Below, piece after piece: positions 2,689-51,268 of a DNA stretch of 64,000 nucleotides. Source of the stretch: a bacterium (GTDB lineage: Bacteria > Patescibacteriota > Minisyncoccia > Phycocordibacterales > UBA6899); NCBI GenBank assembly GCA_043756865.1, contig JAYUQG010000019.1, positions 101,467 to 165,466 on the forward strand, in the 5' to 3' direction. A model generated the notes under the pieces. The model did no database searches. It had not been told where the DNA came from and was given only the letters and a program-made list of their open reading frames with translations. Position 1 is the stretch's first letter. The number at the start of each line of letters is the position of its first letter. A program made the position numbers and the translations under genes.

Positions 2689-3786
2689 ATGTGCATGTTG
2701 CAGTGGCTTAAAAATCACTTCATCCCACACGAAGCAAATGGTTTTGCTCCATACGTACTTCGCATGAAAATTGCGATGCTGTTTTTTGCCCTTATCGCAC
2801 TCATCGAACTGGTGTACCTCGCAAACACATTGTTTGTGCTTCCGAGAAGTGATTACTTTGCGGCAATTTTTGCTACTGTGCTTGTCGACCAGACAAACAA
2901 AGAACGCGATACCGCCGCACTGCGCACACTCACTTCGAATCCAAAACTCGAAATAGCAGCACAACTGAAAGCCGACGACATGGCTGCGAAAGGTTACTTC
3001 GCGCACAATGCCCCCGACGGCACCACGCCATGGCATTGGTTTGCGCAAGCGGGTTATGATTTCGCCGCCGCAGGAGAAAACCTCGCAGTGAATTTTACTG
3101 ATTCGAAGGACGTCACCGAGGCATGGATGCGCTCTCCAACGCACCGCGCAAATATCATGAGTGGTAACTACACCGAAATTGGTATTGCTACGGCGCGCGG
3201 AATGTACAAAGGAAAGGAAGCCATTTTTGTTGTTCAAAAGTTTGGCCGACCATCCATTATCGCACGCCAATTACCAAGCGCCTCAAGCACGGTAAGTACT
3301 CTTGCGAATCTTTTACCTACAACAGTTCTCGGCGCTACCACCATTACAAAGAAACCTGCTCCAACCATTACGGTGACCCGCCCAGTTTCAACACCCCAAC
3401 CTACGCCTCCAACACCCGTCATCACGGAAACTCCCAAACCACAGGCACCCATCATCACCACACTACTCCCCGTCACGACAGTGGTCGCTGGTGCGGAAGC
3501 ACTTAAGCTCCCCATAGAGAATGAGATTGTACTTCCTGAAACCGCGCCACAACAAGCAGCACCGCTTGGTTATTGGGCGAGAATATTTTCTGCACCACGG
3601 CAGTTGGTTACTTTCCTGTTCCTCGGCTTGGGGGCACTTATGCTTATTGCACTCCTCCTCAACGTATTTATTAGGGTTCGCGTCCAGCATCCACACCTCA
3701 TTCTCAATGGACTACTCTTGATTGCTGTCGTAAGCTCACTGATAATGTTAAACACCGTCATCGGTGTTACGCAGGGGGTGATTTAG
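2689..3786 (+). CDS. CAP/SCP/PR-1-like (YkwD-type) domain protein with an N-terminal TM segment, a Pro/Thr-rich linker and C-terminal TM segments
   Basis: GYFAHNAPDGTTPWHWFAQAGYDFAAAGENLAVNFTDSKDVTEAWMRSPTHRANIMSGNYTEIGIA matches the CAP-domain signature. Paralog of 40074..40682. A TGCTATAAT extended -10 lies immediately upstream, so the real start may be the second ATG at 2695 on a leaderless transcript. Confidence 0.75.
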   Translation: MCMLQWLKNHFIPHEANGFAPYVLRMKIAMLFFALIALIELVYLANTLFVLPRSDYFAAIFATVLVDQTNKERDTAALRTLTSNPKLEIAAQLKADDMAAKGYFAHNAPDGTTPWHWFAQAGYDFAAAGENLAVNFTDSKDVTEAWMRSPTHRANIMSGNYTEIGIATARGMYKGKEAIFVVQKFGRPSIIARQLPSASSTVSTLANLLPTTVLGATTITKKPAPTITVTRPVSTPQPTPPTPVITETPKPQAPIITTLLPVTTVVAGAEALKLPIENEIVLPETAPQQAAPLGYWARIFSAPRQLVTFLFLGLGALMLIALLLNVFIRVRVQHPHLILNGLLLIAVVSSLIMLNTVIGVTQGVI

Positions 3787-6395: not shown

Positions 6396-6557
6396 GCGTT
6401 TATCGAGAGTACGGAGTAGGGAATTGGCCCGATGATACCGTCAGCAACCACCTCTGGAGAGGAGCGGTGCTAAATCCAATCCCTTATAGGGGAGATGAAT
6501 GTGGTTGGAGGAATAATGGCAACCAAAAAAGTCTTTCCCAAACGGAAGGCTTTTTTG
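6396..6557 (+). promoter_or_regulatory. SAM-I (S-box) riboswitch with a terminator-type expression platform, upstream of metK
   Basis: UUUAUCGAGAG..GGAGUAGGGAAUUGGCCCGAUGAUACC..CAGCAACC...GGUGCUAAAUCC...CCCUUAUAGGGG..GAUGAA matches the SAM-I conserved cores (GAGGGAnnGGCCCGAUGA, GCAACC, GGUGCUAAAUCC). P1 pairs UUUAUC with GAUGAA. Downstream hairpin gtctttcc..ggaaggc followed by ttttttg. A TGTTATAAT -10 lies about 20 nt upstream at 6371-6379. Confidence 0.75.
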
Positions 6558-6646: not shown

Positions 6647-7699
6647 ATGCAACGCATTCAGCAAACACACACTGTCGAGAGTGTGACCGCAGGTCATCCG
6701 GACAAAGTGTGTGACCAGATATCAGATGCCATTTTAGATGCATGCCTCACACAAGACCCGAAATCGAGAGTCGCCATTGAAAGTTTCGGTGCACACGGAC
6801 TGTTGGTTATTGGGGGCGAGCTCACGACTGACGCACGTATCGATGCATCAGCAATTGCGCGCAAAGTTTATCGCGACATCGGATACGACAACGAACTTGA
6901 AATCATCGAGCGCATTGTGACACAGTCTCCCGATATTGCGATGGGCGTGGACCAAGATGGTGCAGGCGATCAAGGTATTATGTATGGCTATGCCACAAAC
7001 GAAACTGAAGAATATCTCCCGCGTGGCATTACCCTTGTACACAAGCTTACAAAGGGACTCGAAGACTTACGGAAAAGCGGAAAAATTAACTGGCTGCGTC
7101 CTGATGGCAAGGCACAAGTGACCATTTCTGACGGCAAAGTCCGCACGGTGCTTGTGTCTACGCAACATGCTGATGGCATACAGCATAGCGAAATCCGAGA
7201 AGCCATCATCGACGAACTCATCCGGCCTATTATTGGCGACATTGGGCGCACCGAAATACTCGTGAACCCCACAGGACGCTTCGTGCAAGGCGGATTTGAG
7301 GCTGACACTGGGCTCACGGGGCGCAAGCTGATGGTAGATACCTACGGCGGACTCATAGCGCACGGTGGAGGGGCATTTTCGGGCAAAGACGCAACCAAGG
7401 TAGACCGCTCGGGTGCATACATGTGCCGCTATGTAGCGAAAAATCTCGTGGCAAACAAACTCGCGAAGGAAGCGACCGTGTCAGTTGCCTACGCCATCGG
7501 GCACCCCGAACCGCTCATGGTCGCAGCGGTTGACGAGAATGGTGAGGACCTCTTCGATGTTGTGCGCAATCGGTTTGACTTTCGTCCCAAGTCCATCATT
7601 CAGCAACTCGATTTGCGAAAACCTATTTTCGCACAAACAGCGGCTTACGGTCACTTCGGAAAGGCAGGCTTACCTTGGGAAACCGTTATACAAATATAA
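6647..7699 (+). CDS. metK: S-adenosylmethionine synthetase
   Basis: ESVTAGHPDKVCDQISDAILDACL, GDQGIMYGYATNETEEYLP, LVNPTGRFVQGGFEADTGLTGRKLMVDTYGG, HGGGAFSGKDATKVDRSGAYMCRYVAKN. Confidence 0.92.
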   Translation: MQRIQQTHTVESVTAGHPDKVCDQISDAILDACLTQDPKSRVAIESFGAHGLLVIGGELTTDARIDASAIARKVYRDIGYDNELEIIERIVTQSPDIAMGVDQDGAGDQGIMYGYATNETEEYLPRGITLVHKLTKGLEDLRKSGKINWLRPDGKAQVTISDGKVRTVLVSTQHADGIQHSEIREAIIDELIRPIIGDIGRTEILVNPTGRFVQGGFEADTGLTGRKLMVDTYGGLIAHGGGAFSGKDATKVDRSGAYMCRYVAKNLVANKLAKEATVSVAYAIGHPEPLMVAAVDENGEDLFDVVRNRFDFRPKSIIQQLDLRKPIFAQTAAYGHFGKAGLPWETVIQI

Positions 7700-21096: not shown

Positions 21097-21885
21097 ATGA
21101 AACAAACACAAATTTACATCATACTTGGAATACTTGCACTGTTATTTATCGGACTTTTCTTGGCCATCCCAAAAGAGCCTGAACTCTCAGAGCCAAACAT
21201 AGCTGCGTGTACTAAGGAGGCGAAAATTTGTCCTGACGGTAGTGCAGTAGGACGCACGGGCACCATCTGCGCATTTGCAACGTGCCCATCATTGGCAGCT
21301 ACATCCACCCCCGATATGCCAAAAGTTGTTGCGTACGGTGACGTGATGCTGTTCGCAGGGGAGACTGCCAACTTTCCCGACGTCGCACTTACGCTACTGC
21401 GCGTAACCGAAGACAGTCGCTGTGCTACTGATGTCACTTGTATTTGGGCAGGTACACTGAAAGCAGAGTTTCAACTTGTCACCCCCCAAATGAAAAGCAC
21501 CTCTACGATTGAGCTCAACAAATCCATTACTGTAGGAGGGTTTGTAGTCTCACTTACTGGTGTAGCTCCCTATCCAAAATCTTTAACTCAAATTACCCCC
21601 GACGCTTATCGCCTCACGATGAAAGTAGAAAAGGTGGGCAGCACAAATCCAAAACCAACAGCGACATCTACTGCCCCGAAACCTACTCAAGCAGGATGTT
21701 ATGTAGGGGGTTGCTCGGGAGAAATTTGTTCCGACAAACCAGACATTGTTTCCACCTGCATGTATCGAGAAGAATACGCATGTTACCGTAGCGCCACCTG
21801 TGCGCGTCAGACTAGCGGTGCATGTGGCTGGACTGAAACTCCTGCCCTCAAGGCGTGCCTCATGAATCCGACACAAGCGCAATAA
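21097..21885 (+). CDS. Secreted or TM-anchored cysteine-rich protein with a C-terminal 8-Cys module
   Basis: N-terminal hydrophobic helix. N-proximal motif CTKEAKICPDGSAVGRTGTICAFATCPS. C-terminus GCYVGGCSGEICSDKPDIVSTCMYREEYACYRSATCARQTSGACGWTETPALKACL. Paralog of 50867..51268, with identical Cys spacing. Confidence 0.6.
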   Translation: MKQTQIYIILGILALLFIGLFLAIPKEPELSEPNIAACTKEAKICPDGSAVGRTGTICAFATCPSLAATSTPDMPKVVAYGDVMLFAGETANFPDVALTLLRVTEDSRCATDVTCIWAGTLKAEFQLVTPQMKSTSTIELNKSITVGGFVVSLTGVAPYPKSLTQITPDAYRLTMKVEKVGSTNPKPTATSTAPKPTQAGCYVGGCSGEICSDKPDIVSTCMYREEYACYRSATCARQTSGACGWTETPALKACLMNPTQAQ

Positions 21886-34528: not shown

Positions 34529-34972
34529 TCAACTATCGAGCGGTGATGCCTGTTGCTCTGTGAGTTCTTCTGTTGGTGCTAAACAATTTTTTATTTTCTC
34601 GATAACGTTTTCCATAGTGAAATCTGATTTGATGAGGTAGTACGATGGCTCGTCTTTTGTGACACCACCCATAATTTTGTCATCAGCACTCAGATTGGTG
34701 AGCAATATCACGGATACGTGTTTCCCATATATACCTGACGTGCGTAGTTTTGCGAGCATGGTCATACCGTCTATGATGGGCATATCAATATCAAGAAGCA
34801 CGAGGTCTGGTTTTTCTGCGAGTATGAGCGCGAGACCGCTTTCCCCGTCAAATGCTTGGAGTACACGAAATCCCGTGTCCGCAAGTGCTCCCGCGAGCGA
34901 TTTGGAGATTACATGGTCATCCTCAATGATTGCTACTTTGTATTTTTTTGCGTCAAATTTTTCCTTTGTCAT
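34529..34972 (-). CDS. Single-domain CheY-like response regulator receiver
   Basis: KVAIIEDDHVISKSL...PDLVLLDIDMPIIDGMTMLAKLR...VILLTN...YLIKS. Paralog of 13015..13404. Confidence 0.8.
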   Translation of the reverse strand: MTKEKFDAKKYKVAIIEDDHVISKSLAGALADTGFRVLQAFDGESGLALILAEKPDLVLLDIDMPIIDGMTMLAKLRTSGIYGKHVSVILLTNLSADDKIMGGVTKDEPSYYLIKSDFTMENVIEKIKNCLAPTEELTEQQASPLDS

Positions 34973-34998
34973 GAGTGTGTTTGCGTAATTGTTACGGG

Positions 34999-35400
34999 CT
35001 ATTTGTTGGTAAAATATACTCGCACTTTTTCCATAATTTCTGGAAGTGCATGTTGTGATTTCACTATGTAGTCACTGGCACCCAGGGAGAGCCCGCGCTC
35101 GACGTCGTCGTTGCTACCCAGCATCGTGAGCATAAAAACGGGAATATGCTTTGTTTTTGCATTCTTTTTGAGTGCTTCGAGCACGTCAAAACCATTTTTT
35201 TTGGGCATTAGGAGATCAAGCAAGATTAAGTTTGGCTGCTGTGCATTCGCCAATCGCAAACCATCCTCCCCGTCATATGCACAAAATGTTTCAAAGCCGG
35301 AATCGTTGAGTTCCTCAGAAAGCACTTTTGAGAGTACGGCATCGTCTTCAACGAGAAGAATTTTTATTTTAGACTCTGAATTTAATTCTATGACTTTCAT
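34999..35400 (-). CDS. Single-domain CheY-like response regulator receiver
   Basis: KILLVEDDAVLSKVLSEEL...PNLILLDLLMPKKNGFDVLEALK...IPVFMLT...ASDYIVKS. Confidence 0.8.
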   Translation of the reverse strand: MKVIELNSESKIKILLVEDDAVLSKVLSEELNDSGFETFCAYDGEDGLRLANAQQPNLILLDLLMPKKNGFDVLEALKKNAKTKHIPVFMLTMLGSNDDVERGLSLGASDYIVKSQHALPEIMEKVRVYFTNK

Positions 35401-35468
35401 GTGTTGATATTGATATTGATAGAGACGCAGCTTGCGTAGATTAATATAATGCAGGAAGTGTTGTGTGA

Positions 35469-36851
35469 CTATTGTGTCCTGTGTCCAATTTGGGGTACAA
35501 GGGCAACCGGCAATTCAACGTAAAACCTGGAACCCGCATTGTCATCGCCGTCTGCGAACGCACTCTTGTTTGTTATCCTGATCGGTGACTCAAACCAAAT
35601 CTTCCCACCCAAGAGGTATGTGGCGCGTTCCGCAATGAAAAGTCCAATACCTGTGCCGTCTGTTTTATAAAGCTTTGCATTGCTCGCCCGCACAAATTTC
35701 TCAAAAATTCTCGATTGCTCCGATATTGGAATACCAATACCCGTATCCTCAATTTCAATCCGAAACGTGTTGCTTTGTATTTTTAAGACAATAGTAATAC
35801 TCCCCCCCACTCCTGTGTACTCAATAGCGTTCGAGACGAGGCTTTGGATAATATTGTGTAATGAGTTTTTATCCGTCATCACGTGGAGTTCGTTTGGGTG
35901 ATTGTCAAAAATCAATTTCAACCCTTTCTTGTCGAGCAGTGGGCGGCATTCTTCGATATAGTTTCTAATAAAGCCAATAACCTCAATAGGTTCTTGAGAG
36001 AGTACCACTCGACCAGCTTCGATGCGTGACAAGTTCAGTAATAAATCCACCATTTCTGTGAGTCGTTTTGCAGACACATGGATATCATTCAGGTACTCTA
36101 CTCCCTTTGGCGTTAGTTTTTCTTTTTTAGTAAATCTCTCAATAACCCACTGAATACCGGTTAGGGGAGTACGAAGTTGATGTGAAGCAATTGAGATAAA
36201 TTCTCCTTTTATACGATCAAGCTCTTTTTCTTTCGTGGTATCTCGGAATACTTCAACCACGCCGATTAACTCGGTGCCCACGACGATGGGTGCGATGGTG
36301 AGTGATACCGGGAAAGATAACCCATCTTTGCGCTCAAATATCGCCGCTGTAGCAATCGCAGTTACCTGTGTTTGACCCTTAAGGATTTTTGTAGATAATC
36401 GTTCGGCATCGGGAATCCTTCTTCCGTTCTCATCCGACATATATACCATTTCAATCAGCGGTTGGCCCTTAACTTCAGACTCTCTCCAGCCCAGCATTTT
36501 CTCGAAAGCACCGTTTACCATGGTGATGTTCCCATCTCGATCAGTAGCAACGAGTCCGTCACCGATACTCGCGAGCACGGCAGCGTCCTTGGCTTTTGCT
36601 TCTATCAATTTCTCGCGCTCCTGTTCAAGGTCATCGAGTAGGTTCGTGGTAGCCTTGCGTGTACTCTTGAGCTCTTCCTGCTCACGCTCAAGATCTTCCC
36701 ATAGATTGAAGGACGCCCTGCGCAAGTCATCAAGCTCCGTGACCCGTTCGGCGAGTACTCGCGTGAGTGCGGAAACTTGCTGTTCTAGTGCACTTATTGG
36801 CGCACCAGGTGGCGACCCGATACCCTTTTTTTTCTTGTCTAATTTGGTCAT
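35469..36851 (-). CDS. Soluble sensor histidine kinase with an N-terminal coiled coil, PAS domain, HisKA and HATPase_c
   Basis: FISIASHQLRTPLTGIQWVIERF (H-box). DGTGIGLFIAERATYLLGGKIWFESP (G-box). No TM segment. The ATG at 36851 is preferred, since the track ORF starts at a TTG overlapping the upstream gene. Confidence 0.85.
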   Translation of the reverse strand: MTKLDKKKKGIGSPPGAPISALEQQVSALTRVLAERVTELDDLRRASFNLWEDLEREQEELKSTRKATTNLLDDLEQEREKLIEAKAKDAAVLASIGDGLVATDRDGNITMVNGAFEKMLGWRESEVKGQPLIEMVYMSDENGRRIPDAERLSTKILKGQTQVTAIATAAIFERKDGLSFPVSLTIAPIVVGTELIGVVEVFRDTTKEKELDRIKGEFISIASHQLRTPLTGIQWVIERFTKKEKLTPKGVEYLNDIHVSAKRLTEMVDLLLNLSRIEAGRVVLSQEPIEVIGFIRNYIEECRPLLDKKGLKLIFDNHPNELHVMTDKNSLHNIIQSLVSNAIEYTGVGGSITIVLKIQSNTFRIEIEDTGIGIPISEQSRIFEKFVRASNAKLYKTDGTGIGLFIAERATYLLGGKIWFESPIRITNKSAFADGDDNAGSRFYVELPVALVPQIGHRTQ

Positions 36852-36873
36852 TGCAAAATGTGCGGGATTATAC

Positions 36874-38073
36874 CTAGCCTTGAGTGCCGGACTTTGCCTT
36901 AAGTAGTGCAATTTCTTCTTTCAGCTCTATCATTTTGAGCTCTCGTCCCGTCATCATTTTGTTTAATTTTTCGAGTCCTTCTAGATATGCCGCAGCTTTT
37001 TTCTCAGCGAATTTTCTATCGCCGATATCTCGTATGTTGCATTGTATCATTTCTGTGCCATCAGTGAGCGGATAACGATTACTCACAAACTCAACCTGAT
37101 GTTCTAGGCCATCTTTTGACTTAATAGGGAGGTCGTCATAGCGTACATACCCTTTTGTCTGCAATTCCTCGAACATCATCTTGGCATACTTAATATCGGG
37201 AACCGCGCCGATTTCCCAGAGTTTTTTGCCAATTATTTCAGCTAGTGAGTATCCCATCAGTTCAAGTAAAAATGGGTTAGCGTCAACTATCTTTTCGGTT
37301 GCAGGGTCAATAAGCAGGACGCCATCTTTCGCGGTTTCAAAAAGTTTTCTATATTGTACTTCAGAAATAAGGAGCTTGCGTCGCACGCTTTCTTTCTCCT
37401 CCGCTGTTACTGCTAATTGTCGCGCGGTAGCCGCCAATTTGTTTCTCACGCTCTCTTTCTCCTTCGCAGCCGTCGCGAGTTTTCGGGCGGTAACTGCTAG
37501 CTTGCGTCGCACACTCTCTTTCTCGTCTGCAGTAGCCGCAAGTTTTTTTGCTTTAATATGCAGTTTTTCTGCGGTGATCGCAAGTTTGCGCCGCACACTC
37601 TCTTTTTCACCTGCCGTAACAGCAAGCTTGCGTGCAGTAACCGCAAGTTTGTTGCGCACACTCTCTTTTTCTCGAGCAGTGACGGCGAGTTGCCGTGCAG
37701 TAACGGCAAGTTTACGTCGCACGCTCTCTTTCTCCTTCGCTGTCACTGCAAGCTGTCGCGCGGTTACTGCAAGTTTACGTCGCACGCTCTCTTTCTCCTT
37801 CGCGGTCACTGCAAGCTGTCGTGCGGTTACGGCAAGTTTGTTGCGCACACTCTCTTTCTCCTTCGCGGTGACAACAAGTTTGCGTCGCACGCTCTCTTTC
37901 TCCTTCGCGGTCACTGCAAGCTGTCGTGCGGTTACGGCAAGTTTGTTGCGCACACTCTCTTTTCTCTTCGCGGTTACAACGAGCTTGCGTCGCACACTCT
38001 CTTTCTTCTCAGCTGTTACCTTGAGCTTGAGTGCGGTGCTATTTAAGGCCGTTGTGAAATTGTTTTTGTTCAT
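36874..38073 (-). CDS. Cytoplasmic protein with a tandem 21-aa repeat array (KEKESVRRKLAVTARQLAVTA, about 10 units), a PAS domain and a C-terminal coiled-coil signalling-type helix. No output domain.
   Basis: The repeat array covers aa 20-230. Then a PAS-like segment (LLIDPATEKIVDANPFLLELMGYSLAEIIGKKLWEIG). The C-terminus MTGRELKMIELKEEIALLK. Located between the ECF sigma gene and the HK gene. Confidence 0.7.
   Translation of the reverse strand: MNKNNFTTALNSTALKLKVTAEKKESVRRKLVVTAKRKESVRNKLAVTARQLAVTAKEKESVRRKLVVTAKEKESVRNKLAVTARQLAVTAKEKESVRRKLAVTARQLAVTAKEKESVRRKLAVTARQLAVTAREKESVRNKLAVTARKLAVTAGEKESVRRKLAITAEKLHIKAKKLAATADEKESVRRKLAVTARKLATAAKEKESVRNKLAATARQLAVTAEEKESVRRKLLISEVQYRKLFETAKDGVLLIDPATEKIVDANPFLLELMGYSLAEIIGKKLWEIGAVPDIKYAKMMFEELQTKGYVRYDDLPIKSKDGLEHQVEFVSNRYPLTDGTEMIQCNIRDIGDRKFAEKKAAAYLEGLEKLNKMMTGRELKMIELKEEIALLKAKSGTQG
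37375..38030 (-). repeat. Tandem 63-bp (and 42-bp variant) coding repeats of about 10 units
   Basis: cgcacgctctctttctccttcgcggtcactgcaagctgtcgtgcggttacggcaagtttgttg is reiterated with point variants. These generate the spurious plus-strand ORFs 37181..38122 and 37558..38046. Confidence 0.85.
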
Positions 38074-38087
38074 AATATTTTGGTACT

Positions 38088-38609
38088 TTATTGTTGCAAG
38101 GCAGGTTCATAGAGTAATTTAAGTTTTTCGAGTCCACGGTGTACCTGTACGGCTATGGCGTTCTTTGTTTGACCAGTACAGAGTGCAATCTCTGCAAGCG
38201 AGAGGTCTTCCACGTAGCGCATGTGCACAACCTTTTTATATCGTTCAGGTAACTGCGCTATCAAGAGCACCGCCGTCTCTCCATCTAATATGTCAAACAA
38301 CCGTGAGGAAAAACCGGTTGTTGGTTCGTATCCTTTTTCAATAAGCAAATCAAGCGAAACCGTTTTGCCTTTACGGTACTCGTCAATTACGAGATTGTTC
38401 AATACGTGGTAGAGAAAGGCCTTCATCAGGTCGATTCTCCCTCCTTTTACGAGGTATGCCCACGTTTTTAAGAATGTGTCTTGTACAAGGTCCTCACTCG
38501 TATCCCGATTGTTTGTCTTAAAGTAAGCATGAACCTTCATTCCTTTTCCGTAGTCTTGATGTGCTACGGTAAGTAACTTACGTTGTTTTATGGTTTGTAA
38601 TGGACTCAT
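38088..38609 (-). CDS. ECF-type RNA polymerase sigma factor (sigma-70 regions 2 and 4)
   Basis: DLVQDTFLKTWAYL (region 2). LPERYKKVVHMRYVEDLSLAEIALCTGQTKNAIAVQVHRGLEKLK (region 4). Confidence 0.85.
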   Translation of the reverse strand: MSPLQTIKQRKLLTVAHQDYGKGMKVHAYFKTNNRDTSEDLVQDTFLKTWAYLVKGGRIDLMKAFLYHVLNNLVIDEYRKGKTVSLDLLIEKGYEPTTGFSSRLFDILDGETAVLLIAQLPERYKKVVHMRYVEDLSLAEIALCTGQTKNAIAVQVHRGLEKLKLLYEPALQQ

Positions 38610-38728
38610 ACCTTTAGTTAGCTATTACAAGGAGCATAGTCCTCACCCATCTTAAGATGTAATAAGACAAATTTGATCAATTTTTAGATGAAAAAATGTT
38701 CTATAATTTCCTGAGAAAGTAGGGTTAT

Positions 38729-40075
38729 TTACGTATGTGCCCCAAGATAGAGCGGGTTTATTTTGAGTGACTGTGTCGTGAGTATGAAAAAATCCTTGAT
38801 CCCGGTTTCTACGGCAATATTTTTTCTAATCGCGTCGGCAATATTATAGAGCTTTTTCCAATCAAATCGCGCTTCCGCGTCCATTAGTTCAGAGATCTCA
38901 GAAAACTGCCAGTCATTCTGTGTTGCGTCGTCGTCATGAAAAATAACACGAAGTAAGCCGTATTGCCTGCTAAATTTTTGTATCTTTATCTCGCTTGCGC
39001 CGACATGGAGTATTCCATTTTCTTGATCAAACGAAGCGGTAGATACGGTTTCACCTCGTTCGACGTGTTTTGCGTCGCGTTTCATAAGGATCTTGTTCAG
39101 ATGTTCCAGCTCAGCGGTATTCGTCCGATAAAGGTCTTCGACGAGCTTAAGCTTTGTGACGTCAACGATAACACCCTGCACTGAGCGCTTCCCTTGGTAG
39201 ACAAACGGACTGGATGCTATTTCGACATCGCGCACTTCGCCACCAAGTGTGATGATTTTATACGGCACCAGCGGAGTATTGATATTTTCGGTTACCACCG
39301 CATTTATTTGCTTGCGCACTTGGTCATGAAAATCCTCGTGAATAAAATTCAGTAGAGGCTTTCCAATAATCTCTTCCATTTGCTGACATCCGAATAGTTT
39401 GACCGCGGCGGTGTTTAAGAATCGAAACGCGCCATCGTTGTGTACAAAAAGTGCGTGAGGGGAGAACTCTACGATTCTTTTATAGTGCTCCTCATTTTCT
39501 GCGATTATTCGTGCTGCATTGGCGTGTACGGAAATATCCACCCAAGAGCCAATAATTTCTGCAGTACTCTCGTCAGTGGCCTTGATATAGTTCGCACAAT
39601 CGATAAACCAATGATACGTCTCATCCTTGTGGAGCCAGCGATAGGTCATCTCAATAGCCTGCATACTTCCTTGCTCAAGTTGTATAAGCTTTTCAATAAC
39701 TTCGAGCTTGTCTCTGGGGTGTAGGCGGTCTGCCCAAAAAGTGCGGTCACGCCCAAAGTCATTGAACTCGAATCCGGTACTCTGAACGAAGTTTGGCCCC
39801 ATCCACAGCACCTCCCAGCCCCGCCTCTCGGTGTTGAATTTTTGCTTATAGAGCACCGCAGGAGGAAAATAAAATGTTTTCTGGTCCATTACCACAACCC
39901 CTTCTACTTTGTTGAGTTTTCCTTTTTTAACCATACTGGAGAGGATAGCACCTATATTTGTGAAACTATCATAAAAAATAGCCGACGACAATGAATTGCC
40001 TTGTGCGGGCACTGTCTTAAGAAAGTCTTTGTATTTCTTAAGAGTGGTACGGAATACGATTTGTTGTATGAACAT
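38729..40075 (-). CDS. Tandem PAS/PAC-domain protein without an output domain. The start is uncertain, with an internal ATG around 39934 possible.
   Basis: Two PAS-like blocks (MQAIEMTYRWLHKDETYHWFIDCANY... and HALFVHNDGAFRFLNTAAVKLFG...VPYKIITLGGEVRDVEI). The annotated 5' end overlaps the start of the divergent CAP gene. Confidence 0.6.
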   Translation of the reverse strand: MFIQQIVFRTTLKKYKDFLKTVPAQGNSLSSAIFYDSFTNIGAILSSMVKKGKLNKVEGVVVMDQKTFYFPPAVLYKQKFNTERRGWEVLWMGPNFVQSTGFEFNDFGRDRTFWADRLHPRDKLEVIEKLIQLEQGSMQAIEMTYRWLHKDETYHWFIDCANYIKATDESTAEIIGSWVDISVHANAARIIAENEEHYKRIVEFSPHALFVHNDGAFRFLNTAAVKLFGCQQMEEIIGKPLLNFIHEDFHDQVRKQINAVVTENINTPLVPYKIITLGGEVRDVEIASSPFVYQGKRSVQGVIVDVTKLKLVEDLYRTNTAELEHLNKILMKRDAKHVERGETVSTASFDQENGILHVGASEIKIQKFSRQYGLLRVIFHDDDATQNDWQFSEISELMDAEARFDWKKLYNIADAIRKNIAVETGIKDFFILTTQSLKINPLYLGAHT

Positions 40076-40682
40076 GCAACGAAAAGTGTTGAGTCACGGA
40101 ACAGCATATGGTGGGACACTCTTTCACCGCGCAATCATTATACTTGGTATATGCACAATGTTTGTAAGTGTTTTGCTTTTACACACAAACGTAGCAAGTG
40201 CCAGAACCGTGTACCAAACGCCCGATATTGACGCAGTCGACACACGCGACGGTTTTTCCCCGTTACACACTATTACTGTGGAGGAATTACTTGACCTCAC
40301 AAACAAGGATCGCGTGGATGCTGGACTTCCTGTGCTTACAATAAATCAGGAGCTCGTTAATTCGTCTGAACTTAAGGTAAAAGATATGGCAACGAGGGGG
40401 TACTTTGCTCACGTGACACCGGAAGGGAAAAGTCCATGGTATTGGTTTGCTTTGGCAGGATATAACTATCACTCAGCCGGCGAGAATCTTGCAGTAGATT
40501 TTATTGGTTCTTCCGCGATAGAAGATGCGTGGATGAAGTCACCAAGCCACCGAAAAAATATCCTGAACTCGAAATATACAGAAATTGGAATCTCACTTTC
40601 ATCAGGTTACTTCAAGGGTCGCCACACCATCTTTGTTGTTGAGCATTTTGGAAACCGACGGACGAGCCACTTTCAATTCTAA
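40074..40682 (+). CDS. CAP/SCP/PR-1-like (YkwD-type) domain protein with a signal peptide or N-terminal TM
   Basis: GYFAHVTPEGKSPWYWFALAGYNYHSAGENLAVDFIGSSAIEDAWMKSPSHRKNILNSKYTEIGIS. Paralog of 2689..3786. Confidence 0.75.
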   Translation: MQRKVLSHGTAYGGTLFHRAIIILGICTMFVSVLLLHTNVASARTVYQTPDIDAVDTRDGFSPLHTITVEELLDLTNKDRVDAGLPVLTINQELVNSSELKVKDMATRGYFAHVTPEGKSPWYWFALAGYNYHSAGENLAVDFIGSSAIEDAWMKSPSHRKNILNSKYTEIGISLSSGYFKGRHTIFVVEHFGNRRTSHFQF

Positions 40683-40869: not shown

Positions 40870-41460
40870 ATGGATACCGCAAACACAAACACCGGGCATG
40901 GGCATAAACAAGAGGGGTCAGATTTTTTTGATCGCTTATGGGAAGAGAGCTGGACGCTCATCAAGACGGTTGTTGATGTCGTCAGAGAGCCCATGTTGAT
41001 ACTTGATAAAGAACTTCGCGTGATGGCGGCAAACGAGTCGTTCTACCGTACGTTTCAAGTGGAACAAAAAGACACTGAGGGCAAGATCGTGTATGAATTA
41101 GGAGACGGACAGTGGGGAATACCTGCGCTCCGCAAGCTTCTCGAAGATATTCTCCCCAAAAATACATTTTTTAAGGGCTTTGAGGTCGCTCATGATTTCC
41201 CGTCCATCGGACGCAAGGTCATGATACTGAATGGTCGGCAGATTCACTGCAAAGAGAACTCTACTTCAAAACTCTATTCGCCGATTATTTTGTTGGCACT
41301 GGAAGATGTCACTGATATGATGATGATTGCACAAAAGCTCGCAAATCACACAAATCAATTTGAAGAAAAAATAAGCGAACGAACACAATACACGGAAATG
41401 CAAATCAATAAATTAGAAAAAGAAATCAATGAGTTAAAAATGAAATCACAAAACTCCTGA
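40870..41460 (+). CDS. PAS-fold protein with a C-terminal coiled coil
   Basis: ILDKELRVMAANESFYRTFQVEQKDTEGKIVYELGDGQWGIPALRKLLEDI. C-terminus EKISERTQYTEMQINKLEKEINELKMK. Confidence 0.5.
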   Translation: MDTANTNTGHGHKQEGSDFFDRLWEESWTLIKTVVDVVREPMLILDKELRVMAANESFYRTFQVEQKDTEGKIVYELGDGQWGIPALRKLLEDILPKNTFFKGFEVAHDFPSIGRKVMILNGRQIHCKENSTSKLYSPIILLALEDVTDMMMIAQKLANHTNQFEEKISERTQYTEMQINKLEKEINELKMKSQNS

Positions 41461-41499: not shown

Positions 41500-42759
41500 A
41501 TGAAAATAATTCACACATCAGCACGTTTCTCAGTTTTAGTAGTTGGACTCATGCTTGGCTTTGCGGGACCAGTCGCTGTCTTTGCCGCAAGTCCTGCAGC
41601 TATCAATCTCGGCGCGGCAGGTAATTATGCTATCCTTGCAAAAACAGGTATCTCAACAACGGGCGCAACCGCAGTAGTCGGAGACCTTGGTATTAGCCCT
41701 GCTGCCTCAACGTACATTACGGGATTTGCACTCACTCTCCCTTCAGCGAGTGCATATTCAACCTCCGCGCTTGTCACTGGGAAGGTGTATGCACCAGGAT
41801 ACGCTGATCCGACTACGTCGAACCTGACAACAGCGGTGCTTGATATGCAAAATGCATATACTGATGCAATGGGGCGCGCAGCGGGCGTCACGGAGCTCGG
41901 AGCAGGCAATATTGGAGGACTCACCCTTACGTCAGGTGTCTACAAGTGGGGAACAGGAGTTCTTGTGCCTACAAACGTGACGCTTTCAGGCAGCGCAAAC
42001 GATGTATGGATTTTCCAAATCGCGCAAAACCTTAATCTGAGTTCAGGTGTGCAAATAGTGCTTTCGGGCGGTGCACAGGCGAGCAATGTCTTCTGGGCAG
42101 TTGCAGGTCAGACGACGCTTGGCACAACTGCGGTCATGAACGGAACCGTGCTTGATCAAACGGCAATTGTGTTGAATACCGGAGCAGTGTTAAATGGACG
42201 CGCGCTTGCTCAAAGCGCAGTGACACTTGATGCAAGCACGGTGACCCTCTCAAGTGCATCTGCAGTACCGGCTGTGCCAGCAACTCCTGCGACTCCCGCA
42301 GTGCCAACCGTCACACCTCCCGTATCGGCGACACCTGCTACTCCTGCAGTTTCAAGCAGTGGCGGAAGTTCAGTTTCATCACAAAGTGGAGTTGCCCCTG
42401 TTTCGGAAGAAGCAAAGGCACGTATGCAAGTGCAGATCGCAGAGCTTTCCGTCACACTTGAAGCACTTCGTGCCCAACGCACAATGCCTGCAGCTTCTGC
42501 ATTTGGACAACAAGTGCGCTCCATCGCGACTGACTTCAAAGTGGGAAGCAGGGGAGCAAACGTGAGTGTACTTCAGCGGTTCCTCATGGAACAGGGTAAG
42601 GGTTCTGCCGCTCGCGCACTTGCTACTCATGGTTCCACAACATACTTTGGTCCGCTCACGCGAGCCGCACTCGCAGAGTTTCAAGCAAGCGTCGGTATCA
42701 GCCCCGCACTTGGCAACTTCGGCCCTATTACTAGAGCATATGTCAGCACGCATTTCTAA
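41500..42759 (+). CDS. Secreted DUF3494 (ice-binding-like fold) protein with a Pro/Thr/Ala linker and a C-terminal PG_binding_1 domain
   Basis: Signal peptide. AINLGAAGNYAILAKTGISTTGATAVVGDLGISPAA...NVFWAVAGQTTLGTTAVMNGTVLDQTAIVLNTGAVLNGRALAQSAVTL. C-terminus GANVSVLQRFLMEQG...YFGPLTRAALAEFQASVGI. Confidence 0.75.
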   Translation: MKIIHTSARFSVLVVGLMLGFAGPVAVFAASPAAINLGAAGNYAILAKTGISTTGATAVVGDLGISPAASTYITGFALTLPSASAYSTSALVTGKVYAPGYADPTTSNLTTAVLDMQNAYTDAMGRAAGVTELGAGNIGGLTLTSGVYKWGTGVLVPTNVTLSGSANDVWIFQIAQNLNLSSGVQIVLSGGAQASNVFWAVAGQTTLGTTAVMNGTVLDQTAIVLNTGAVLNGRALAQSAVTLDASTVTLSSASAVPAVPATPATPAVPTVTPPVSATPATPAVSSSGGSSVSSQSGVAPVSEEAKARMQVQIAELSVTLEALRAQRTMPAASAFGQQVRSIATDFKVGSRGANVSVLQRFLMEQGKGSAARALATHGSTTYFGPLTRAALAEFQASVGISPALGNFGPITRAYVSTHF

Positions 42760-42783
42760 TCATTGTTCGATAACGCACATCTT

Positions 42784-44580
42784 ATGAATTACAAAAACAA
42801 ATTATTGACCTCGCTTGGTATTGCACTGCTCGTTGTGGTGTCAGGTCCACAGATTGCGAGTGCGGCATCAACTCCGTCACTCGGTACAGCTGGCACGTAC
42901 AGTATTCTCTCCAGCACTTTTACTCGTAATATTGCGGTAACAACCATTACTGGAAACCTTGGGTACACCACCTTAAGTGGTGGGGGGTCACACACGGTCA
43001 ATGGTATTACCAATACTCCTGCTCCTGCTCAATCGGGGATAGACCAGAATAGTGCATCAACTACTCTTGCTTCAGAGCCATGCACATTTACTTTTGCACC
43101 AGGAGCGATTGACCTCTCGACGGATACCACGCACGGTCCAATAGGAGTTTATACACCAGGAGTCTACTGTACTGCAGCATCGAGTGCCGCTTCAATCGGG
43201 ACAGCAGGGTTGACTCTCTCTGGCGCAGGAACTTATATTTTTAGGATCTTTGGCGCGCTCACTTCAGCAGCAAACTCGCAAGTCAGACTAGCTAATGGGG
43301 CATCATCGTGTGACGTTTTCTGGTCTCCCGCAGCTGCGACAACCCTTGGGGCAAATACCATATTCGTGGGTACGGTTATTGATGATGCAGGTATTACTGT
43401 TGGCAATACCACCTCATGGTTTGGACGAGCCTTGGCATTTGGTGGAACTGTAACGACTGACACAGATATTATTAACTCGTCTTGTATTACTGGCGCGTTC
43501 CCGAGCGCAGTACCTATTGCCACTATCAATGTTGTTAAAGTGGTCGTGAATGATGGCGGTGGAACTAAAACCGTTGCAGACTTTCCGCTCTTCGTTAACG
43601 GTACGCCGGTTTCTTCGGGTGTGACCAATACTTTTCCCGCACCTGCTCCTCGGTATCAGATCTCCGAAACGTACGATTCTTCAAAGTACTCACAGAGCTT
43701 CTCCGGTGATTGTGGCTTAAATGGTGGAATGAGCCTTGTCCCGGGTGACAACAAGTTCTGCATCATCACGAACAACGACATAAAAGCACCCATTGTTCCT
43801 GTTGTTCCGCCATTGATCAAGGTATTGAAGGTGGCCAGCCCCCTTTCCCTCCCGCTCGGCCCTGGACCAGTTACGTACACCTATACGGTCAAGAATATTG
43901 GAACGGTCCCAGTGACCAACGTCACGATGGTCGGTGACACCTGCGCTCCGATCATTTTAGTCGCCGGTGACGTAAATGCCGACTCAAAGATCGATGTGGG
44001 TACGACATGGACGTTTCGCTGCACCACAACACTCGCGAAAACACACACAAACACCGTCGTTGCGACTGGATGGGCGAATGGCATTTCCGCAGTTGATATT
44101 GCAAGTGCCACTGTTGTTGTTGGTGCACCAATAGTGCCACCACTGATACACATTACAAAGACTCCAAGTCAGTTCACACTTGGGGTCGGTGGGGGATTTG
44201 TAACATACACCAAAATGGTCCATAACCCTGGGACGGTCCCGCTTGCCAATGTTCGCCTCACGGACAATGACTGCAACCCAATTTCTGGCCCCTTCGGTGA
44301 CGCAAATAAGAACAGCCTACTTGACCCAAGTGAGTCATGGGCATACGCCTGCCGAACGAATCTCAGTAAAACAACAACTAACACTGTTTTTGTAACTGGC
44401 GAAGCCAATGGCCTGATCGCAAGAGACTTCGCGATTGCAACTGTCGTTGTTGCTGTGCCAAAATTGCCAAATACGGGAATCGCTCCTGATGAGCAAAACA
44501 TTCTATGGCCAATCTTGATTGGACTCTCCGTCTTTGCTGTGGGACTGCTCTCCATAGTTGGAATAAAAAAGGCACTATAG
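42784..44580 (+). CDS. Secreted DUF3494-like protein with three beta-sandwich repeats (VxNDGGGTxxxxDFxLxVNG type) and a C-terminal LPNTG sortase signal
   Basis: Signal peptide. SLGTAGTYSILSSTFTRNIAVTTITGNLGYTT...DVFWSPAAATTLGANTIFVGTVID. Repeats INVVKVVVNDGGGTKTVADFPLFVNG. C-terminus KLPNTGIAPDEQNILWPILIGLSVFAVGLLSIVGIKKAL (LPXTG, hydrophobic stretch, basic tail). The start is placed at the ATG at 42784, since the track begins at a TTG. Confidence 0.75.
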   Translation: MNYKNKLLTSLGIALLVVVSGPQIASAASTPSLGTAGTYSILSSTFTRNIAVTTITGNLGYTTLSGGGSHTVNGITNTPAPAQSGIDQNSASTTLASEPCTFTFAPGAIDLSTDTTHGPIGVYTPGVYCTAASSAASIGTAGLTLSGAGTYIFRIFGALTSAANSQVRLANGASSCDVFWSPAAATTLGANTIFVGTVIDDAGITVGNTTSWFGRALAFGGTVTTDTDIINSSCITGAFPSAVPIATINVVKVVVNDGGGTKTVADFPLFVNGTPVSSGVTNTFPAPAPRYQISETYDSSKYSQSFSGDCGLNGGMSLVPGDNKFCIITNNDIKAPIVPVVPPLIKVLKVASPLSLPLGPGPVTYTYTVKNIGTVPVTNVTMVGDTCAPIILVAGDVNADSKIDVGTTWTFRCTTTLAKTHTNTVVATGWANGISAVDIASATVVVGAPIVPPLIHITKTPSQFTLGVGGGFVTYTKMVHNPGTVPLANVRLTDNDCNPISGPFGDANKNSLLDPSESWAYACRTNLSKTTTNTVFVTGEANGLIARDFAIATVVVAVPKLPNTGIAPDEQNILWPILIGLSVFAVGLLSIVGIKKAL

Positions 44581-44664
44581 TCCGTCGATCTGTTTGCAAA
44601 TGAAGAAAAAAGAGAGCCAGATAAATTTGTCTGGCTCTTACGGCACGGCAAATATTAGAAATCT

Positions 44665-45543
44665 ATGAAATCAAAAAACATATTTGGGCAGATGTTGCTC
44701 ATTGTCAGCCTTATCAGCCTTGGAGTGTTTGCGACAGCCCCAACTTTAGTGTTAGCCTCCACATTCATAACAAACCTCCAACTGGGCAGCAATGAGGCCG
44801 GTGTAAAAGATCTGCAAATGCTCTTGAACATGAGCACTGACACACAAGTTGCAGTAGTGGGTGCCGGATCACCGGGTAATGAAACAACATACTTCGGACA
44901 AGCAACAAAAGCTGCGGTTATTAAATTCCAAAACAAATATGCCCTAGAGATTCTTACGCCAGCTGGCTTAACTAAGGGCACCGGCTTTGTCGGTAAACTC
45001 ACTCGCGTAAAGTTGGGCATGATGAACAGACCAGTACAGCTGATTGAAAACGTCGTCATGCTCCCCAAACAAGAACCTGTAAGTATCGGGTTGCCGACGC
45101 GACTCAAAATTCCCTCACTCGCCATCGACACTTCTTTCGAGTTTGCCGGTCTTACGCCAGAGGGAGCAATGGATGCGCCGAAGGGTCCTACTGCTGTGGC
45201 GTGGTTTAAACTCGGTCCGCGACCAGGAGATGCGGGCAGTGCTGTAATTTCCGGACACTATGGCTGGAAAAATAGCATACCTGCGGTATTTGATAATTTG
45301 CACACGTTGGTAAAAGGAGACAAACTCTACGTTCTCGATGAACGCGGGGCGACCACTACTTTCATCGTGCGCGAATTGCGAACCTACGGGGCGCAAGACG
45401 ATGCCTCGGACGTGTTTGGTTCTAGTGACGGGAAGTCACATCTAAATCTCATTACCTGTAAGGGAATTTGGAACAAGAATGAAAAAAGTTACTCGGAGCG
45501 ACTCGTCGTATTTGCTGATAAAAATATAGATGAGAGTTTGTAG
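44665..45543 (+). CDS. Sortase (transpeptidase) with an N-terminal TM segment and a PG_binding_1 domain
   Basis: [20 protein letters not shown]...[17 protein letters not shown] is a PG-binding domain. Catalytic region AVISGHYGW...[17 protein letters not shown]...HLNLITCKG (TLXTC-type Cys). Confidence 0.8.
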
Positions 45544-46056
45544 AGAGTAAAACCTGACTCAACATAAGCTTGTTTTCTTGCTTCTCTAGAAGGGTGAGCG
45601 GATGCTTCTTTGTTCCTTTTGTCGATGCACGCATTGGGGTGTTGTTTTTCGATACAGCGAAATCCCGTATACCCACACACCAACTAATCGGTGGAATAGC
45701 GAGGAAGAGCGGTTCCTTGTTGGTCAGCTGCTTGTCATGTCACCTTCCTGCTTTGGTGGAAGACATCCAGAGGTTGCGGTTCGTGTTTAGCTGAGGATAC
45801 ATGCGCATTCGCGAGGTAGGCGAGGCTTCTCCAGTTTTGGATAGACAAAGTATCCAGCGTATCTGTGGCGGAACGGACAGACTGCCCACTGGAGTGAATA
45901 TGCGACCACCGCGATAAGAAGTGTGAGCACAACCCAGGAAAAATAAGAGTCCGGATAATTACCTCATCATGCTCAAATTTCGTTGTTTGTCCAAGTAGTC
46001 TGGGAAGTTTTTACCATACTTGAGACACCTGCTCGAGCATGTTAGTCTGGGCGCAC

Positions 46057-50642: not shown

Positions 50643-50822
50643 AAGGGCTCTTCCATTAATAACTTACCTGTCTCGCTTCCATATTTACCCCATCTTCAAC
50701 TTTTCTTCAATCTCAAAATCTTCATCGTAACTCGGCTACGTTTCAGCTTTTGCTCAATCAGCAAAGTCGAATCTGTAGCAAATCTGAAACCGAGTCCAAG
50801 CAAGTTATTAATGGAAGTGCCC
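50643..50822. repeat. Element of about 180 bp bounded by 26-bp near-perfect terminal inverted repeats, enclosing nested hairpins
   Basis: gggctcttccattaataacttacctg at 50643-50668 against caagcaagttattaatggaagtgccc at 50797-50822, with 23 of 26 positions complementary. An internal imperfect inverted repeat pairs actcggctacgtttcag with ctgaaaccgagt, and a smaller one pairs ttttgct with agcaaag. Confidence 0.6.
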
Positions 50823-50866
50823 TAAGAATTACTGATATACTGGAGAGACGAAACTGCATACTGCTT

Positions 50867-51268
50867 ATGGAACAATACGCAAACAAAAAATATTATGGGC
50901 CGCTGGGTGCAATGCTTGTACTCCTCGTGGTTTTTGTGCTCTCGGGGATACTTTTCTTTACGCCAAGCAAAACCCCACCAAGTCCGGTGGTCACCCCCAC
51001 TGCAACAACTACCGCACCCACAGACGACATCGCAACGGCAACACCCGTCGTCGTGGAAAGCGATGACCTGAATATTAAAAAGGCACCAAAGTGCGTTATT
51101 TCCGGCTGTAGTGCGCAAATTTGCGGGGAAACAGAGATGATGTCCTCGTGTGAGTATCGCGAAATCTATCAATGCTACAAAACCGCACGCTGTGAACGCA
51201 ATACGAACGGACAGTGTGGCTGGGTAGAAGACAGTACGCTGCGCGGGTGTCTCGATTCTTATCAATAG
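50867..51268 (+). CDS. Secreted or TM-anchored cysteine-rich protein sharing the 8-Cys C-terminal module with 21097..21885
   Basis: N-terminal TM (LGAMLVLLVVFVLSGILFF). Pro/Thr linker. C-terminus KCVISGCSAQICGETEMMSSCEYREIYQCYKTARCERNTNGQCGWVEDSTLRGCL. The start is moved to the ATG after the inverted-repeat element. Confidence 0.6.
   Translation: MEQYANKKYYGPLGAMLVLLVVFVLSGILFFTPSKTPPSPVVTPTATTTAPTDDIATATPVVVESDDLNIKKAPKCVISGCSAQICGETEMMSSCEYREIYQCYKTARCERNTNGQCGWVEDSTLRGCLDSYQ

Follow-up and report, generated by a model that had tools for sequence, protein, structure and literature searches.

Locus layout and gene products

The DNA analyzed here, a 64-kb stretch of contig JAYUQG010000019.1 from a member of the Patescibacteria (hereafter, the window), carries a cassette of three consecutive plus-strand genes predicted to encode a secreted DUF3494 protein (g1), a fibrillar adhesin-like sortase substrate with a DUF3494 head (g2), and a class-F-like sortase fused to a PG_binding_1-like domain (g3). 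An earlier note, made from the letters of this stretch, had described a cell-surface module of three plus-strand genes at 41500-45543, and all three open reading frames (ORFs) are present there; the domain families that it named (DUF3494, PG_binding_1, Sortase, and DUF11/TIGR01451) were each supported in profile searches. The features of the cassette and of its surroundings are collected in Table 1.

For g2, the ATG at 42784 is a likelier start than the first in-frame TTG, in agreement with the public gene call and with the N-termini of homologs. For g3, the start at 44665 is favored over that of the public 283-amino-acid call, located nine codons downstream, because homologs retain a basic MKSK-like N-terminus. 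The gap between g1 and g2 is 24 nucleotides (nt), and that between g2 and g3 is 84 nt. The latter spacer contains a 9-bp hairpin, which was considered as an intrinsic terminator and dropped, since it is followed by no T-tract on the plus (coding) strand; possible roles are those of a partial terminator and of an mRNA-stability element.

Identical proteins are already present in NCBI, on a 187-kb contig, under automatic names. Homolog searches returned more than 4,100 relatives of g3 and at least 1,650 of g2, and the near relatives of both come from Patescibacteria metagenome-assembled genomes (MAGs), including Paceibacterota, Yonathbacteria, Jorgensenbacteria, Doudnabacteria, and Uhrbacteria. 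The best 120 of the at least 1,650 g2 relatives are about 600 amino acids (aa) long and 55-74% identical, and their automatic names include "ice-binding family protein" and "LPXTG-motif cell wall-anchored protein."

Table 1. Positions of the cassette genes, their domains, and associated features. Coordinates refer to the window, except where a compared locus from a related genome (L-number) is given.
Feature	Position	Strand	Description
g1	41500..42759	+	419 aa; secreted DUF3494 (Ice_binding) protein with signal peptide
g2	42784..44580	+	598 aa; fibrillar adhesin-like sortase substrate; ORF open from TTG 42763
g2 DUF3494/IBP-1-fold head	42907..43473	+	aa 42-230; Pfam Ice_binding, ~83 bits
g2 stalk domain 1, CnaB/SpaA_2-like beta-sandwich	43513..43788	+	aa 244-335; candidate triad K252/E295/N330, Cys pair C310/C326
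g2 stalk domain 2, CLIPPER_2 (DUF7507) #1	43816..44124	+	aa 345-447; candidate triad K349/D385/N423, Cys pair C387/C413
g2 stalk domain 3, CLIPPER_2 (DUF7507) #2	44146..44454	+	aa 455-557; candidate triad K459/D494/N533, Cys pair C497/C523
g2 cell-wall sorting signal	44464..44577	+	LPNTG (44464-44478), hydrophobic helix, KK-containing tail; direct reading
Hairpin, 9 bp	44613..44638		g2-g3 spacer
g3	44665..45543	+	292 aa; class-F-like sortase fused to PG_binding_1-like domain
g3 PG_binding_1-like helical domain	44761..45030	+	aa 33-122; followed by a disordered linker, ~aa 123-139
g3 sortase catalytic beta-barrel	45082..45531	+	aa 140-289; His198 (45256-45258), Cys265 (45457-45459), Arg279 (45499-45501)
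PAS-like protein	40870..41460	+	196 aa, cytoplasmic; weak PAS matches; directly upstream of the cassette
ECF-type sigma-70 family factor	38088..38609	-	Divergent; precomputed Sigma70_r2/r4 on identical contig
Giant S-layer-like proteins	L004:6908-10093, L033:6755-10297, equivalent ORFs in most of L004-L080		N-terminal PG_binding_1-like domain and signal peptide

A stalked DUF3494 protein with a sorting signal

The DUF3494 head of g2, recognized in the earlier note together with the LPNTG signal, scores 82.9 bits against Pfam Ice_binding (PF11999; cut-off 28.7), a family matched by 47 of 47 aligned g2 family members. In the AF2 model of g2 (predicted local distance difference test, pLDDT, 88.5; above 90 in the head), a signal-peptide helix is followed by a beta-solenoid with a flanking helix (aa 82-97), which together represent the IBP-1 fold, and then by three beta-sandwiches, a disordered region containing the LPNTG motif, and a terminal transmembrane helix (aa 574-597). 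The best Foldseek matches of this model are solved DUF3494 ice-binding proteins (IBPs), with target-normalized TM-scores of 0.75-0.81; a PDB profile search with the head reached 5uyt at E 8.7e-39, and the DUF3494 domain is homologous to that of SfIBP_1 (6bg8, E 3.7e-15).

The stalk contains three beta-sandwich domains, as had been proposed, but these are not the equal repeats first envisaged: one is CnaB/SpaA_2-like, and the other two are CLIPPER_2 domains sharing 49% identity. The CLIPPER_2 pair is covered by DUF7507/CLIPPER_2 (PF24346; 43 bits in two stretches, cut-off 27), and g2 also scores 36.5 bits against TIGR01451. The match of the first stalk domain to SpaA_2 (PF19403) is weak (16.4 bits vs a cut-off of 25), its model is a beta-sandwich, and SpaA_2 is detected in 4 of 47 g2 homologs at E <= 1e-3 and in precomputed matches of orthologs. 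Each stalk domain holds a candidate isopeptide triad, placed from conservation and spacing only: Lys/Glu/Asn in the first and Lys/Asp/Asn in each CLIPPER_2 domain. All three triads are invariant in the 47 aligned g2 sequences, and that alignment also shows five invariant or nearly invariant Cys pairs, of which the head holds two and each stalk domain one. The spacing of the CLIPPER_2 triads (+36, +74) resembles that of the reference triad K72/D112/N152 (+40, +80); the g2 sequence profile did not reach the solved CLIPPER structure 9IFR at E <= 1. A 2025 survey, in which DUF11 and DUF7507 were renamed CLIPPER and CLIPPER_2, predicted Lys/Asp/Asn isopeptide triads for both, as well as Lys/Glu/Asn triads for SpaA_2, DUF7601, and other CnaB-like families, with disulfides often co-occurring (PMC12617251). 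An intramolecular isopeptide bond together with a disulfide probably stabilizes each stalk domain of g2. In a catalog of fibrillar adhesins, PF11999 counts among the adhesive domains and PF19403 among the stalk domains, with LPXTG and PG_binding_1 given as anchors (PMC8286594); by the definition used there g2, as judged from its predicted domains, is a fibrillar adhesin-like protein.

The C-terminus of g2 reads PK-LPNTG-IAPDEQNILWPILIGLSVFAVGLLSIVGIKKAL, in which the motif is followed by 33 residues comprising a membrane helix and a KK-containing tail. A sorting motif of the form [LFV]Px[TSA]G lies within the last 70 residues of 118 of the 120 best g2 homologs (LPNTG in 60), and 112 of these 118, hence 112 of the 120, also have a hydrophobic transmembrane segment and a basic tail; one of the 120 carries a PG_binding_1-like C-terminal sequence in place of the motif. 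Retention of the hydrophobic and basic tail in orthologs, on which the earlier note had staked its reading, was observed in all those found adjoining sortases, and these orthologs have in common the extended pattern P-[KGA]-LPNTG-x-x-P. No ORF of the window other than g2 carries a credible LPXTG-type sorting signal.

The DUF3494 domain and C-terminal PG_binding_1 domain previously assigned to g1 were both recovered, the former at aa 45-249 with 236.9 bits (E 2.4e-70; cut-off 28.7) and the latter at aa 351-409 as a marginal pass (24.3 bits vs a cut-off of 23). The protein consists of a signal peptide, the DUF3494 domain, a Pro/Thr/Ala-rich linker, a short helical segment, and PG_binding_1. Orthologs of equal architecture sit upstream of the sortase in three compared loci from related genomes (L003, L087, and L088), where the C-terminal sequence is kept. 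By this domain content, g1 probably attaches to the cell wall non-covalently through PG_binding_1.

The strong homology and fold match of these heads to characterized IBPs (5uyt, FfIBP, ColAFP, and SfIBP_1) raise the question of whether they bind ice. In such a case, g2 would be an ice adhesin that keeps the cell attached to ice, like SfIBP_1 of Shewanella frigidimarina, with which it shares a head-on-stalk layout, and g1 would be a wall-bound antifreeze or recrystallization inhibitor, in keeping with the NCBI family name "ice-binding family protein." This explanation is considered improbable. Many Patescibacteria MAGs contain related loci with the cassette or with its PG-binding module, and several bear names indicative of a groundwater or aquifer source (NC_groundwater, RIFCSP), suggesting unfrozen habitats. 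The NCBIfam equivalog IBP_CFB (NF045625) scores 215 bits for g1 and 30 bits for g2, against a cut-off of 400, and the T-A/G-x-T/N marker of FfIBP ice binding, a weak criterion, is present a single time in g1 and absent from the g2 head. Moreover, the IBP-1 fold is documented in non-ice adhesion (bioRxiv 10.1101/2023.03.06.531300). Given these groundwater-type MAG names, the missed equivalog cut-off, the near-absence of the FfIBP-type motif, and the non-ice uses of the fold, adhesion to a surface or polymer is the most likely function of the heads, rather than ice binding.

A class-F-like sortase and its fused N-terminal domain

The g3 product scores 70.1 bits against Pfam Sortase (PF04203; cut-off 26.6), a family also matched by all 33 aligned fusion homologs, in which His198, Cys265 (within HLNLITC), and Arg279 are invariant (33 of 33). 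Its best class is NCBIfam class_F_sortase (NF033748), at 113.5 bits, under the curated cut-off of 166, with the next-best class at 28.8 bits; NCBI applies the name "class F sortase" to near unfused homologs, and g3 is accordingly described here as class-F-like from its profile scores. Structure prediction reproduced the two-part architecture that had been expected: the AF2 model (pLDDT 84) comprises a helical domain (aa 33-122) and a sortase barrel (aa 140-289), both confident and joined by a linker disordered at residues 125-137, with a predicted TM-score (pTM) of 0.60 that leaves their relative position undefined.

Searched with Foldseek, the g3 barrel matched solved sortases at E 1e-10, the best being class C pilus sortases such as SrtC2 of Actinomyces oris (8t28), and the isopeptide domains of g2 are of the CnaA/CnaB type, as in Gram-positive pilins. 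Both observations would fit a pilin-polymerizing sortase that joins g2 head to tail into a covalent pilus. Such a role is very improbable, since hidden Markov model (HMM) scores prefer class F over class C by ~86 bits, direct reading of the g3 sequence found neither a DP[WFY] lid motif nor a C-terminal membrane helix, a YPK(N)-type pilin motif was not found in g2, and no second (housekeeping) sortase or minor pilin is present in any of the 11 cassette loci compared below.

The N-terminal PG_binding_1 domain that the earlier note had assigned to g3 is a candidate supported mainly by its family: g3 itself scores 21.9 bits (aa 47-95), just under the Pfam cut-off of 23, but 30 of 33 aligned fusion homologs match PG_binding_1 (best E 2.3e-12). 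The family profile also reaches the peptidoglycan-binding N-domain of the Streptomyces Zn DD-carboxypeptidase 1LBU (residues 32-127, E 1.4e-3). In the g3 model, the domain has a pLDDT above 90 and helices at aa 45-54, 79-96, and 111-120. The subthreshold score and a conserved GxGSxGNET insertion outside the Pfam model leave some room for a domain that does not bind peptidoglycan. It might then be a spacer, regulate the active site in the manner of a pro-domain or lid, or offer a docking site to the substrate or a surface layer (S-layer). The PG_binding_1 fold is also that of the pro-domain of matrix metalloproteinases, and the flexible linker, together with the undefined relative position of the two domains, would allow the N-terminal domain to fold back. 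However, like domains are found where an anchor is expected, namely at the C-terminus of g1, in a partial surface protein elsewhere in the window (3-2537, described below), and at the N-terminus of giant S-layer-like proteins, and both the homolog matches to PG_binding_1 and the match to the peptidoglycan-binding domain of 1LBU speak for an anchor. A function other than peptidoglycan binding is therefore unlikely.

Whether g3 remains a membrane protein was considered from its N-terminus, which has a hydrophobic segment at aa 10-32 and a pattern like that of the g1 and g2 signal peptides: a basic start, a hydrophobic core of ~13-16 residues, a Pro, and VLA|S. By a crude measure that indicates a trend only, a hydrophobic run of at least 20 residues occurs in 9 of 41 fused vs 29 of 73 unfused sortases. 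The AxA pattern, an equally crude indicator of trend, occurs in 12 of 41 fused sortases, 11 of 73 unfused sortases, and 64 of 106 secreted controls. As a heuristic trend only, the g3 N-terminus is closer to the cleavable signal peptides of g1 and g2 than to the 20-22-residue anchors of many unfused orthologs. A speculative and rather unlikely extension of this trend is that the sortase of the fused lineage is no longer a membrane protein, its N-terminus being cleaved and the released enzyme keeping its place in the wall solely through the PG_binding_1-like module that it has in common with the S-layer-like protein. If so, mature peptidoglycan rather than lipid II could be the acceptor to which a sortase residing in the wall attaches proteins, and this, with the highly conserved DUF3494 fibril, would constitute a Patescibacteria-specific attachment apparatus.

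Distribution of the sortase fusion

The earlier note had called the fusion unusual. This is so with respect to the characterized sortases and the PDB sortase entries retrieved, none of which has a PG_binding_1-like domain, but not within the lineage, in which the extra domain is present in 46 of the 121 nearest sortase clusters. Two subtypes of the fused domain were distinguished: a "long" one with an 8-residue insertion, to which g3 belongs (29 clusters), and a "short" one resembling the C-terminal domain of g1 (17 clusters).

A single origin of the fusion was considered and dropped. Fused enzymes are interleaved with unfused ones in a neighbor-joining tree built from 121 catalytic domains; the tree is crude and unsupported, and its interleaving indicates a patchy distribution only. 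Better evidence comes from the two subtypes and from a shared locus. Specifically, the fused sortase of L082 and the unfused sortases of L091 and L092 have flanking genes in common: LepA and DivIC upstream in L082 and L092, DHH and RNase H upstream in L082 and L091, a release factor and FtsE downstream in all three, and FtsX also in L082 and L091. The fused and unfused enzymes are thus orthologs at one locus, and, together with the interleaved tree, this suggests repeated gain, loss, or replacement of the fused domain. A split version of the fusion is seen at L003:6821-8298, where PG_binding_1 (40.4 bits) and a Pur_ac_phosph_N (fibronectin-like) domain form a separate 221-aa protein encoded after an unfused sortase.

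The "long" domain is also 60-75% identical to the N-termini of ~1,100-1,200-aa proteins from dozens of Patescibacteria genomes. These giant proteins have no Pfam match beyond the N-terminal domain, and none is encoded in the window. In the one example that was read, a signal peptide precedes a body that lacks cysteine and has a high content of Thr, Ser, Asn, Gly, and Val, and from this composition the giants look like S-layer proteins. Since the domain fused to the sortase is common to their N-termini, it appears to be a generic wall-targeting module of the lineage.

Conservation of the cassette

The order of the cassette, which the earlier note had proposed to compare among related genomes, is conserved: an LPXTG protein with DUF3494 and CLIPPER_2 domains immediately precedes the orthologous sortase, or is at most one small gene away, in 11 of 11 independent contexts (the window, L082, L083, L085, L087, L088, L001/2, L003, L090, L091, and L092, with L001-L092 denoting the loci compared). 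The sortase is fused in the window, L082, L083/84, L085/86, L087, and L088/89, and unfused in L001/2, L003, L090, L091, and L092. Flanking genes differ in most of the 11 contexts, and several also hold a g1-like paralog, with or without PG_binding_1. One of these loci, L001 (JBFYZC010000427.1), is titled "Bacillota bacterium" and carries a Patescibacteria-type cassette in which the protein ends are identical to those of L002 ("bacterium" PPR_0483); its Bacillota label is probably a binning or labeling error.

Proposed mechanism and points against it

With a probability of roughly 0.7, the cassette is interpreted as a conserved cell-surface display system of Paceibacteria-type Patescibacteria, in which a fibril anchored by g3 (g2), a non-covalently held head protein (g1), and a wall-held sortase act together to present heads for adhesion. 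In this model, g2 would be exported via its signal peptide, and its C-terminal helix and basic tail would keep it in the membrane. The sortase, with Cys265 as the predicted nucleophile assisted by His198 and Arg279, would then cleave g2 at LPNT|G and transfer it to a peptidoglycan precursor or to the wall. The expected product is a short covalent fibril with a DUF3494 beta-solenoid at its tip and a stalk of one CnaB-like and two CLIPPER_2 domains. In parallel, g1 would display a paralogous DUF3494 head through its flexible Pro/Thr-rich linker and C-terminal PG_binding_1 domain, while the PG_binding_1-like domain and the ~15-residue linker of g3 would keep the enzyme at the wall, the meeting point of substrate and acceptor. 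Gene order, domain identities, catalytic residues, sorting signal, conservation, and synteny were established in this analysis, whereas transpeptidation, isopeptide bonds, wall binding by the fused domain, and the ligand of the heads are predictions. Adhesion to a host or episymbiont, the role put forward in the earlier note, is likewise conjectural.

Several observations weigh against this interpretation. Both the class F and the PG_binding_1 scores of g3 fall below their cut-offs, and the insertion in the fused domain relative to the Pfam model marks it as a divergent subtype, a predicted peptidoglycan binder only. The search for sortase substrates covered the 64 kb of the window, and other substrates are possible beyond it. 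Finally, the g2 head is no more variable than the stalk, with a mean pairwise identity of 0.63 vs 0.63-0.75. Such conservation is unlike that of the usual host-specific adhesins, which are under diversifying selection, and argues for a conserved ligand rather than a strain-specific host receptor.

Comparison with known systems

The closest parallel to g2 is found in the sortase-dependent fibrillar adhesins of Gram-positive bacteria (PMC8286594, PMC12617251), in which an adhesive head is combined with an isopeptide-bonded CnaA/CnaB stalk and LPXTG. Correspondingly, g2 has a signal peptide, an N-terminal head of an adhesive class, a stalk of CLIPPER_2 and, tentatively, SpaA_2 type with candidate isopeptide triads, an LPXTG motif followed by a transmembrane segment and a basic tail, and an adjoining sortase. 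In contrast to these adhesins, g2 has a very short stalk, with three domains instead of tens of repeats, and a head as conserved as the stalk; its host is an ultra-small Patescibacterium, and its dedicated neighbor sortase has a wall-binding domain of its own, as predicted from its family.

Similarly, g3 shares with class F sortases (NF033748), of which a characterized example is that of Cutibacterium acnes, a putative anchor at the N-terminus only, the His/Cys/Arg triad, a predicted LPXTG-type substrate, and the best class score, but it differs from them in falling short of the 166-bit cut-off and in its additional PG_binding_1-like domain of ~90 residues with a linker. The proposed ice adhesin SfIBP_1 (6bg8) also presents a DUF3494 head on tandem beta-sandwich (Ig-like) domains tethered to the envelope. 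It is lipid-anchored at the N-terminus, has a C-terminal head, and belongs to a Gram-negative psychrophile, whereas g2 has an N-terminal head and a C-terminal LPXTG anchor, its lineage is not confined to cold habitats, and ice activity is not known for it.

An IBP-1-like beta-solenoid also serves as a surface or adhesive domain in the choice-of-anchor A/pAdhesive_15 family (PF20597) and in the diatom Trailins. The fold has been described in organisms that never meet ice, with bacterial members carrying LPXTG, PEP-CTERM, or type IX secretion system (T9SS) anchors (bioRxiv 10.1101/2023.03.06.531300). Unlike the PF20597 proteins, which have little sequence similarity to PF11999, both g1 and g2 are true PF11999 members.

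Dedicated pairs of a sortase and its substrates are themselves well known, as exemplified by SrtB with IsdC and by the class GN "marine" sortase with its target protein, and typically comprise one to three adjoining cognate substrates. The cassette resembles them in gene adjacency and in its family-specific P-[KGA]-LPNTG-x-x-P motif, and differs from them in its DUF3494/CLIPPER_2 substrate, its taxon, and the domain fused to the sortase. The cassette works like a known kind of system, a dedicated sortase with a fibrillar adhesin-like substrate, and its distinctive feature is the predicted wall-binding domain on the enzyme. In the open-access literature, no paper was found on this cassette, on a DUF3494/sortase pairing in Patescibacteria, on candidate phyla radiation (CPR) sortases describing the cassette, or on a PG_binding_1-sortase fusion.

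Neighboring genes and other features of the window

Upstream of the cassette, two genes may take part in its regulation. Homologs of the PAS-like protein encoded directly upstream of g1 are found at 68-70% identity in the equivalent position in L085 and L002, and homologs of the extracytoplasmic function (ECF)-type sigma factor, at 60-64% identity, adjoin the cassette in L002, L003, and L085. The two thus travel with the cassette in these three contexts (60-70% identity) and are absent from the others, and they may be regarded as possible parts only. The sigma factor gene belongs to a dense regulatory block on the minus strand (34529-40075), divergent from the surface genes, which by sequence encodes two response-regulator-like proteins, one histidine-kinase-like protein, a 399-aa ORF, the ECF-type sigma factor, and a 448-aa PAS protein. 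Downstream of g3, the next ~500 nt (45544-46038) are without a convincing ORF, and neither a tRNA nor an Rfam family above threshold was detected there.

Other putative surface proteins are encoded in the window. The 5'-partial plus-strand ORF at 3-2537 had been described as sharing both the repeat type of g2 and a peptidoglycan-binding C-terminus. It does contain PG_binding_1 (33.2 bits, aa 750-788) and a stalk of CnaB-like type, but the stalk is assigned to DUF7601 (CnaB-like isopeptide family), with a weak match (E 0.004) to the CnaB-like domain of g2, and not to its CLIPPER_2 repeats. It further contains a DUF642-like region and at least one additional CnaB-like segment with a K/E/N pattern (aa ~525-665), and from these domains is predicted to be a second wall-bound, stalked protein of the non-LPXTG type. 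The two CAP-domain proteins mentioned in the earlier note were located at 2689-3786 and 39996-40682.

Two further observations are independent of the cassette. A SAM (S-adenosylmethionine) riboswitch (RF00162, 57.4 bits) lies at 6397-6501 on the plus strand, upstream of an ORF (6647-7699) resembling S-adenosylmethionine synthetase. Two plus-strand ORFs without a Pfam match (21097-21885 and 50750-51268) have a similar Cys-rich C-terminus, C-x-YRE-x-Y-x-CY-x4-C-x-R-x4-G-x-CGW-x9-11-CL, which may represent a paralogous small secreted domain.

Implications for Patescibacteria

Patescibacteria account for a large share of bacterial diversity, and the surface biology of the phylum is largely unexplored. 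Cultivated members live attached to other microbes, and type IV pili are essentially the only attachment machinery known for them. The cassette reconstructed here, widespread and well conserved, provides a second candidate surface structure for these bacteria. It also suggests that the most common "ice-binding" annotation in their genomes denotes a cell-wall-anchored fibril, and not necessarily an antifreeze protein. Furthermore, the apparently recurrent gain and loss of a predicted wall-binding domain on one orthologous sortase would constitute a natural experiment on how a sortase is positioned with respect to the cell wall.

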